DNA from: a virus
Taxonomy: Monodnaviria > Loebvirae > Hofneiviricota > Faserviricetes > Tubulavirales > Inoviridae
Length of the DNA stretch: 8,398 nucleotides
Direction: 5' to 3' (one strand)
IMG/VR virus record: IMGVR_UViG_2603880148_000001
Below the pieces are notes generated by a model. It was not told the DNA's origin. It worked only from the letters and a program-made list of their open reading frames with translations, and searched no databases. Both the position numbers and the translations under genes were made by a program. Position 1 is the stretch's first letter. The number at the start of each line of letters is the position of its first letter. This document shows, in pieces, positions 1,666-1,759 of this stretch.

Positions 1666-1759
1666 AGTGCGCATAATGTGACACGCGTTATGTTGAAAAG
1701 GCCGCTGCGATACTCTCCACCGCAGCGGCCTTTTTATACATAACGTCATTGTGCGCACT
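1666..1759 (+). other. attP-like region: two inverted dif-like XerC/XerD sites flanking a GC hairpin; putative left prophage-chromosome junction
   Basis: Site A: AGTGCGCATAA (1666-1676), spacer TGTGACACGCG (11 nt), TTATGTTGAAA (1688-1698). E. coli dif is GGTGCGCATAA-TGTATA-TTATGTTAAAT; GTGCGCATAATGT is an exact 13-nt match. Site B, inverted (1732-1759): reverse complement reads AGTGCGCACAA-TGACG-TTATGTATAAA. Arms can pair 10/11 (1666-1676 with 1749-1759) and 10/12 (1688-1699 with 1732-1743), leaving an asymmetric 11 vs 5 nt bulge. Confidence 0.6.
1695..1735 (+). terminator. Rho-independent terminator-like hairpin downstream of hipA, also the tip of the attP-like fold
   Basis: Perfect 10-bp stem GGCCGCTGCG (1700-1709) / CGCAGCGGCC (1721-1730), 11-nt loop, then TTTTT (1731-1735); A-run AAAA precedes it at 1696-1699. 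Confidence 0.6.

Follow-up and report, generated by a model that had tools for sequence, protein, structure and literature searches.

A probable CTXphi-type attachment region at the dif junction of an integrase-less filamentous prophage of Escherichia coli

Introduction

The window analysed here, by which we mean the whole stretch of 8,398 nucleotides, passes from the chromosomal genes hipB and hipA into the genes of a filamentous phage, which raises the question of how that phage came to be joined to the chromosome at this point and what the sequence at the boundary, 1666-1759, contributes to it. For CTXphi, the (+) strand has been described as folding into a forked hairpin on which catalysis by XerC alone suffices, with base identity with dif directly 3' of the XerC cleavage point as the rule of integration (PMC3089051). 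The attachment regions of CUS-1 (E. coli) and YpfPhi (Yersinia) have already been inferred to be of the same type (PMC3089051, PMC4266046, PMC4246890); reviews class both phages as CTXphi-type (PMC4246890, PMC3089051). The two share 99% identity over 7.1 kb, and YpfPhi has inverted XerC/XerD sites with dif regenerated at its 3' end (PMC4266046). Our analysis indicates, with a probability of about 0.8, that 1666-1759 is the attL of an ~8.8-kb integrase-less filamentous prophage at the E. coli dimer-resolution site dif and that it holds a complete CTXphi-type attachment region.

Results

Gene context of the junction

The window carries the following genes and intervals.

1-267, + strand: hipB, chromosomal antitoxin gene (open reading frame; annotated as hipB in the identical locus L001)
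267-1589, + strand: hipA, chromosomal toxin kinase gene (open reading frame and annotation), with its stop 77 nt before dif
1590-1665, no strand: chromosomal spacer between hipA and dif, 76 nt, identical to K-12 and crossed by the megablast matches of ~5,200 genomes
1765-1935, - strand: hydrophobic phage ORF of 56 aa (ORF list, annotation)
2012-2200, - strand: phage ORF of 62 aa, PHROG 2503, candidate regulator (ORF list, annotation)
2336-4348, + strand: Rep, Phage_GPA / RstA-like, ~30% identical to the Rep of fs2/VFJ and to CTXphi RstA
between Rep and the g3-like ORF, + strand: small ORFs, part of the rightward inovirus block 2336-8398
5440-6825, + strand: g3-like ORF, Gly/Ser-rich
6828-7184, + strand: g6-like ORF
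7187-8398, + strand: pI/Zot-like ORF, reaching the window end

The part of the prophage beyond the window is available in E. coli strain 600029 (locus L001), where a secretin gene is followed by the prophage end at a reconstituted dif; neither an integrase nor a transposase is annotated in that prophage, which has the genes of an inovirus, including an RstA-like Rep. Searches of a deposited-phage collection by megablast and blastn gave no match to the phage or to its attP, so the phage is not a deposited one, and at the protein level the closeness of Rep to fs2, VFJ and CTXphi RstA stops at the identity given above. The literature search likewise found no description of this particular phage, which is weak evidence given its incomplete coverage.

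Several other features of the backbone were recorded. The divergent intergenic region between the 62-aa ORF and Rep (2243-2322) contains palindromic repeats of the TGCA-N4-TGCA type, among them TGCACAATTGCA in two copies, and these look like operators from their sequence. Within the g3-like ORF, 6100-6360 is a Gly/Ser-coding tandem repeat with a period of ~78 nt, and blastn of the window against the L001 prophage returned additional matches internal to this repeat, shifted by one or two repeat units. Between the pI/Zot-like and secretin genes, L001 21010-21750 holds about three direct repeats of ~330 nt that start with caccgctcgccgcagacc, together with an annotated reverse ORF of 83 aa; the prophage copies of E. 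coli TD225-C4 are shorter in this interval, with units of 8.33 kb vs ~8.8 kb. Closely related prophages also sit elsewhere in the chromosome, one match overlapping an annotated dinG; they are 95-96% identical from window position ~2352 onward (Rep to Zot) and lack the region left of ~2352, including attP, implying that the shared backbone is there combined with another module for integration and regulation.

Anatomy of the attachment region

The region between the chromosomal spacer and the first leftward phage ORF is composed of the following elements.

1666-1676, + strand: XerC arm of dif, site 1, AGTGCGCATAA; host-derived at the window junction, with predicted XerC cleavage after 1676
1677-1687, + strand: central region of site 1, TGTGACACGCG, 11 nt
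1677-1679, + strand: TGT of the site 1 central region, common to the dif central region
1680-1685, + strand: bulge in the site 1 central region, 6 nt, unpaired and hypervariable
1686-1687, + strand: CG of the site 1 central region, pairing with the CG of site 2
1688-1698, + strand: XerD-like arm of site 1, TTATGTTGAAA, 9/11 identical to dif TTATGTTAAAT and pairing with 1733-1743
1700-1709 with 1721-1730, no strand: core of the apex stem, GGCCGCTGCG pairing with CGCAGCGGCC
1696-1734 (1696-1709 with 1721-1734), no strand: full apex hairpin, a perfect 14 bp including an A4/T4 extension, AAAAGGCCGCTGCG / CGCAGCGGCCTTTT, with an 11-nt loop
1743-1733, - strand: XerD-like arm of site 2, TTATGTATAAA
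1748-1744, - strand: central region of site 2, TGACG, 5 nt, conserved among variants
1759-1749, - strand: XerC-like arm of site 2, AGTGCGCACAA, pairing with 1666-1676 including one T.G wobble

The two dif-like sites are thus inverted (site 1 at 1666-1698 on the + strand, site 2 at 1759-1733 on the - strand) and lie 34 nt apart, and neither has the canonical 6-bp central region. The first-pass annotation had described a 13-nt exact match to E. coli dif and a second, inverted dif-like site, separated by a perfect 10-bp GC hairpin, and all of these are present: identity with K-12 dif covers 1667-1679 (14 nt, 1666-1679, when the common "A-dif" allele is used for comparison), the second site occupies the - strand as listed, and the hairpin lengthens to 14 bp with its A4/T4 extension. 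It had also described a central bulge of 11 vs 5 nt; these lengths are right, but the two regions are partly paired (TG with CA, CG with CG), which leaves a continuous stem with a true bulge of only 6 nt on the 5' arm, at 1680-1685.

The arms of site 2 match dif at only 8-10 of 11 positions. The arm pattern GTGCGCAYAATG, allowing one mismatch, occurs twice in the window, once per strand, at sites 1 and 2, against a chance expectation of 0.10, and two occurrences were reached in 1 of 200 shuffles. The TGT at 1677-1679 is also how the dif central region, TGTATA, begins, and it lies directly 3' of the XerC cleavage point. No complete 28-nt dif (up to 3 mismatches) was found in the window, which holds the recombinant half only, as expected for an attL. 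The apex hairpin closes the forked hairpin and, once the prophage is duplex, may in addition terminate transcription from both directions.

Breakpoint, far end and dif alleles

Downstream of hipA, K-12 reads ...ggtttatattGGTGCGCATAATGTATATTATGTTAAATcatgtc, and dif lies 77 nt after the hipA stop, which bears out the placement of dif next to hipA in that strain given in the first-pass annotation. Megablast of window 1400-2300 found matches in 5,238 of 5,426 complete E. coli genomes, only 3 of which cover at least 80% of the segment; in nearly all matches sampled down the ranking, the match ends at about window base 1679, inside dif. The alignment with prophage-free genomes that had been proposed as a check therefore places the breakpoint in dif, and an identical copy of 1590-1760 in a phage-free genome was not found among these 5,426 genomes.

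A reconstituted dif had been anticipated at the far prophage end, outside the window, and it was located in strain 600029, which carries the full prophage as a single copy that is 99.3% identical to the window. Its far end reads ...ccaccacaacgtcAGTGCGCATAATGTATATTATGTTAAAT, that is, a complete dif (AGTGCGCATAATGTATATTATGTTAAAT at L001 23048-23075, composed of AGTGCGCATAA-TGTATA-TTATGTTAAAT) followed by normal chromosomal genes, and the prophage spans ~8.8 kb, counted from where XerC is predicted to cleave up to the last base of the phage XerC arm. Immediately after this dif, the 6 nt at L001 23076-23081 are CGCATC in strain 600029 vs CATGTC in K-12 and strain 914033, with three consecutive substitutions beside the XerD arm.

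The dif of E. coli is polymorphic at its first base (A at window 1666, G in K-12; also L004 12267-12294). The A-dif allele, AGTGCGCATAATGTATATTATGTTAAAT, occurs in E. coli B/BL21/REL606, C, ATCC 8739 and others, and a 60-mer containing it gave 346 records in the band of at least 99% identity, which at that length means an exact match. Both alleles are found in prophage-free E. coli, and the phage's own XerC arm starts with A. The objection that A at 1666 contradicts a host-derived XerC arm was considered and rejected, given that A-dif is a common natural allele and that other hosts have G at the same junction.

Crossover mapping and tandem arrays

This polymorphism allowed the exchange to be mapped in TD225-C4, which has three tandem prophage copies spaced 8.33 kb apart. 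Its hipA-side junction is GGTGCGCATAA|TGTGACACGCG, with the G-arm of the host; its two phage-phage junctions are ...caacgtcAGTGCGCATAA|TGTGACACGCG, i.e., AGTGCGCATAA|TGTGACACGCG, with the A-arm of the phage; and its terminal site is AGTGCGCATAA|TGTATATTATGTTAAAT, an A-arm dif. Since the host G-arm stays on the left and the phage A-arm is found in the regenerated dif, the crossover lies within GTGCGCATAATGT, as predicted by XerC cleavage at 1676/1677, the position put forward in the first-pass annotation. The same annotation had taken the hipA side as the junction that keeps the whole attP hairpin, and this agrees with the host XerC arm and the entire hairpin region being present there, while the far-side junction consists of the phage XerC arm, the dif central region and the XerD arm. 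To the right of the regenerated dif (L235 28113 onward), TD225-C4 differs from K-12 and carries a chromate transporter gene, corA and IS fragments, a sign that a further rearrangement or an island may border dif there.

Across hosts, the first base of the left junction is G in the IMG/VR proviruses L139 and L234 and in TD225-C4, and A in the window, in L001 and in the IMG/VR provirus L142. Phage-phage junctions with an intact module were also observed in the IMG/VR loci L170, L194 and L210, CUS-1-like copies stand in tandem in MINF_1D, and an intact module is present in six IMG/VR contigs whose terminal overlaps mark them as circular (L179, L204, L140, L143, L174 and L189).

The Rep and structural genes lie on the window + strand, which is the strand that gives the 5'-XerC arm-central-XerD arm-3' reading of dif. 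Inoviruses package their coding strand. On that presumption for the present phage, the orientation suits integration of (+) ssDNA, for which the + strand of the prophage has to run on into the top strand of dif, as it does. Junction topology alone fits duplex recombination at site 1 equally well.

Fold, covariation and strand bias

Folding of 1660-1765 as ssDNA, which had been suggested as a check, produced the forked hairpin on the + strand at a computed -37.4 kcal/mol, vs -12.2 +/- 2.4 for shuffled sequences (z = -10.5), and the - strand folded at -34.1. The XerD-arm duplex includes one bulged T and a G.T pair. Rfam gave only far sub-threshold matches to generic hairpins, and a terminator scan made no call at the apex hairpin because the 11-nt loop exceeds its limit.

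Conservation of the fold was examined in an alignment of 35 distinct ~94-nt module variants collected by pattern scans of public genomes and viral contigs. The scan of public genomes was loose (17 specified bases with a variable gap), and the matches listed were mostly chance; useful loci among them came from Yersinia pestis, Lelliottia, Erwinia, Phytobacter and Klebsiella. Constancy of the TGT among relatives is uninformative because the search pattern fixed it. Standard pairs fill 94.4% of the cells in the 35 variants, vs 31-52% when partners are slid by 1-3 columns, and changes on both sides occur in 14 of 38 pairs. None of 500 shuffles reached the observed values, a control that overstates significance because the variants are related, which makes the slid-partner comparison the more meaningful one. 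The apex stem accounts for 8 of the 14 covarying pairs, with compensatory changes in 8 of 10 stem pairs, and a terminator would conserve that stem too; within the arms, covariation was found at pairs 1-98 (G-C or A-T), 2-97, 30-74, 34-70 and 35-69.

The two strands are also unequal. In 34 of the 35 variants, folding favours the + strand over the - strand (mean difference 2.0 kcal/mol), and G.T wobbles number 108 vs 31 A.C mismatches. The bulge is the most variable segment (mean column identity 0.62, vs 0.95-1.0 in the neighbouring paired and arm columns and 0.77 in the apex loop), and the central region of site 2 has a mean column identity of 0.95. The folding preference of the + strand, the excess of G.T wobbles and the variable bulge fit a single-strand substrate. 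In a wider set of 56 distinct modules, some of them longer and Aeromonas-like, site 1 has a central region 4-6 nt longer than that of site 2 in 52 cases, and the 11/5 combination is found in 30.

Alternative explanations

The hairpin could instead serve mainly as a bidirectional terminator, a packaging signal or a minus-strand origin at the genome end, with the dif-like arms as leftovers of recombination sites. Such a role would suit the stem itself, which is GC-rich, perfect over 14 bp, flanked by T-runs on both strands and located between convergent units (hipA or the phage secretin gene against the leftward ORFs), and which collects most of the compensatory changes. Ff phages, for comparison, are packaged by means of a hairpin that follows gene IV on the + strand. 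We nevertheless consider this explanation unlikely, given that pairing runs well past the apex through both Xer-like arms, that these arms are specifically dif half-sites and that the terminator scan made no call within its loop limit; a second role of this kind would moreover be compatible with the attP role.

Attachment of the VGJphi type, in which site 1 of the double-stranded replicative form is the only partner of dif, with XerC acting first, leaving site 2 and the hairpin incidental, would give identical attL and attR sequences, and a circular genome of a relative, presumably its replicative form, exists (L005, described below). The window does not contain a single duplex attP with dif-like spacing, however: the central regions are 11 nt (site 1, not 6) and 5 nt (site 2), and the equivalent duplex sites of CTXphi have been described as non-functional (PMC3089051). 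Inverted site 2 is furthermore kept in every relative, with compensation in the arms at pairs 1-98, 30-74, 34-70 and 35-69, and strand-biased G.T wobbles are unexpected for a duplex site, all of which makes this route decidedly improbable. Truncated copies of the module on plasmids and elsewhere might be taken to mean that the inverted dif-like sequence arose by chance or was left behind by two separate Xer-mediated insertions of opposite orientation, but an intact module inside free circular and tandem phage genomes and at phage-phage junctions refutes a relic, the module is conserved in at least 35 variants across Escherichia, Yersinia, Erwinia, Lelliottia, Klebsiella and Phytobacter, and the two-arm match is ~20-fold above chance, so that this reading can be given almost no weight.

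The folded, CTXphi-type attachment architecture proposed in the first-pass annotation is in turn supported jointly by junction topology, the G/A crossover map, covariation in the 35 variants and strand-asymmetric folding.

Discussion

Proposed mechanism

Under the CTXphi-type reading, integration would start from the packaged (+) single strand, corresponding to the window + strand, on which site 1 (1666-1698) would anneal with inverted site 2 (1733-1759) while the 14-bp apex stem closes the fold. The resulting duplex would resemble dif, with a XerC arm, a short paired central region carrying the 6-nt bulge on the 5' arm, and a XerD arm, and XerCD could bind this reconstituted site. Host XerC, probably as the only catalyst, would then cut both the phage strand and the top strand of dif just behind the XerC arm (1676/1677), one pair of strands would be exchanged, and the shared TGT would stabilise the exchange. 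Replication would turn the pseudo-Holliday junction into a prophage, a step that is predicted to make integration irreversible. This would place the host XerC arm and the whole hairpin region on the hipA side and, on the far side, the phage XerC arm with the dif central region and XerD arm, i.e., a working dif at which further copies could integrate. The single-strand substrate, the reliance on XerC and the replicative resolution are all deduced from sequence patterns. Counting against this reading are the bulged T and the G.T pair of the XerD-arm duplex, the modest agreement of the site-2 arms with dif, and the single-copy state of the prophage in strain 600029, from which, under the CTXphi model, new virions could not arise.

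Distribution and meaning

Related prophages are present in ~100 of 5,426 complete genomes, many of them from human diarrhoeal isolates, and the occurrence of the module in many enterobacterial and metagenomic inovirus genomes suggests that the architecture is common. The window attP is best described as belonging to the CUS-1/YpfPhi type within the CTXphi class and as sitting on another inovirus backbone. Single-strand Xer integration of the CTXphi type is thereby extended to a second, unrelated E. coli inovirus lineage, and an E. coli-native phage of this type offers a convenient system for the ssDNA integration model outside Vibrio. Current understanding is left unchanged by the window attP, which is a sound but ordinary example of the kind of attP predicted for CUS-1/YpfPhi; what it adds of use is a natural crossover map, provided within genomes by the G/A polymorphism of dif, a case of cassette-like module sharing and a view of the breadth of the module in public data.

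As a tentative and rather speculative combination, the ~95-nt attP may be a self-contained integration cassette that has been swapped horizontally among otherwise unrelated inovirus backbones (with RstA/GPA-type vs pII/X-type Rep) and has left truncated copies on hundreds of E. coli plasmids, its hairpin may double as a packaging signal or a bidirectional terminator, and the hypervariable 6-nt bulge on the 5' arm may owe its form to selection or to errors made when the pseudo-Holliday junction is processed, not to neutral drift.

Comparison with known systems

The closest counterpart is the attP of CUS-1Phi (E. coli O18:K1:H7) and YpfPhi (Yersinia pestis), a homologous module of ~95 nt that is 84% identical by blastn to that of the window and shares its 11-/5-nt central regions, its apex stem GGCCGCTGCG and its position at the end nearest the leftward genes. 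Both kinds of phage use an enterobacterial dif as target, form tandem arrays and have a reconstituted dif at the far end (PMC4266046). The likeness does not extend to the genomes as a whole: these ~95 nt are the only blastn similarity between the phages, and Rep belongs to different families, Phage_GPA/RstA-like in the window phage vs pII/X in CUS-1/Ypf. At the level of single pairs, the first base of the phage XerC arm is A (paired with T) in the window phage vs G (paired with C) in CUS-1/Ypf, and the XerD-arm duplex has a bulged T in the window vs an A.C mismatch there.

Two representatives of that lineage were recovered in the present data. MINF_1D (L003) carries a tandem prophage at the same site with the attP GGTGCGCATAA-TGTACGACTCG-TTATGTTGAAA...GCATAA-CGTCA-TTGTGCGAACC, and its 99.3-99.7% identity to the Yersinia pestis locus L063 marks it as CUS-1/YpfPhi-like. 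The 9,565-bp "untypable plasmid" of E. coli TUM14759 (L005, NZ_CP128883.1) proves to be the genome of a CUS-1/YpfPhi-like phage in circular form, and its attP is intact; it matches the CUS-1/Ypf-like prophage at 99.4% identity and is presumably a replicative form. Many large E. coli plasmids additionally carry a ~70-nt fragment of the CUS-1-type module, comprising the apex hairpin and site 2 and ~84% identical to window 1689-1758 (484 plasmid places, and L006 5990-6069 on plasmid NZ_CP049102.1). Its neighbours in L006 are a truncated IS200C transposase gene on one side and an STM4504-family gene on the other, with a MacB/TolC-type efflux operon alongside, and the fragment looks like a remnant since it lacks the XerC arm of site 1.

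Elements of the VGJphi and TLCphi type are, like the window phage, integrase-less filamentous IMEX that depend on host XerCD at dif, but they use one duplex site, XerC-first or XerD-first, and integrate reversibly (PMC4246890), whereas the window has two inverted non-canonical sites. The attC sites of integrons resemble the window attP in form, as a folded single strand with extra-helical bases serves as substrate of a tyrosine recombinase and one exchange is resolved by replication (parallel drawn in PMC3089051 and PMC4792948); they differ in their recombinase (IntI), in belonging to another sequence family and in moving cassettes instead of phages.

A second family of forked modules, with a span of ~145 nt, was observed at IMG/VR and Aeromonas loci (L150, L152, L167, L186, L206, L220, L023 and L127), all with a neighbouring arm of sequence CTGCGCATAA or TTGCGCATAA. 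In some of them the central regions measure 13 and 7 nt (TGTGGCCGCGGTA / TCCGCAT), closely like CTXphi attP1 TGTGGCGCGGCA, and L023 and L127 have site-1 central regions of 11 nt.

The attP(+) of CTXphi (Vibrio cholerae) itself shares with the window two inverted dif-like sites whose central regions depart from the usual size (12 nt in attP1 and 7 nt in attP2 there, 11/5 here; PMC3089051). Common to both are further a forked hairpin on the (+) strand, here a computational fold, the TGT held in common with dif beside the XerC cleavage point, retention of both sites in attL with a new dif at attR, the formation of tandem arrays and an RstA-type Rep, at ~30% identity. They differ in the spacer between the sites, which is ~90 nt within a ~150-nt hairpin in CTXphi vs 34 nt within a 94-nt hairpin with a perfect 14-bp apex stem in the window, and in the arms, which in the window follow the dif of E. 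coli and not the dif1 of V. cholerae.
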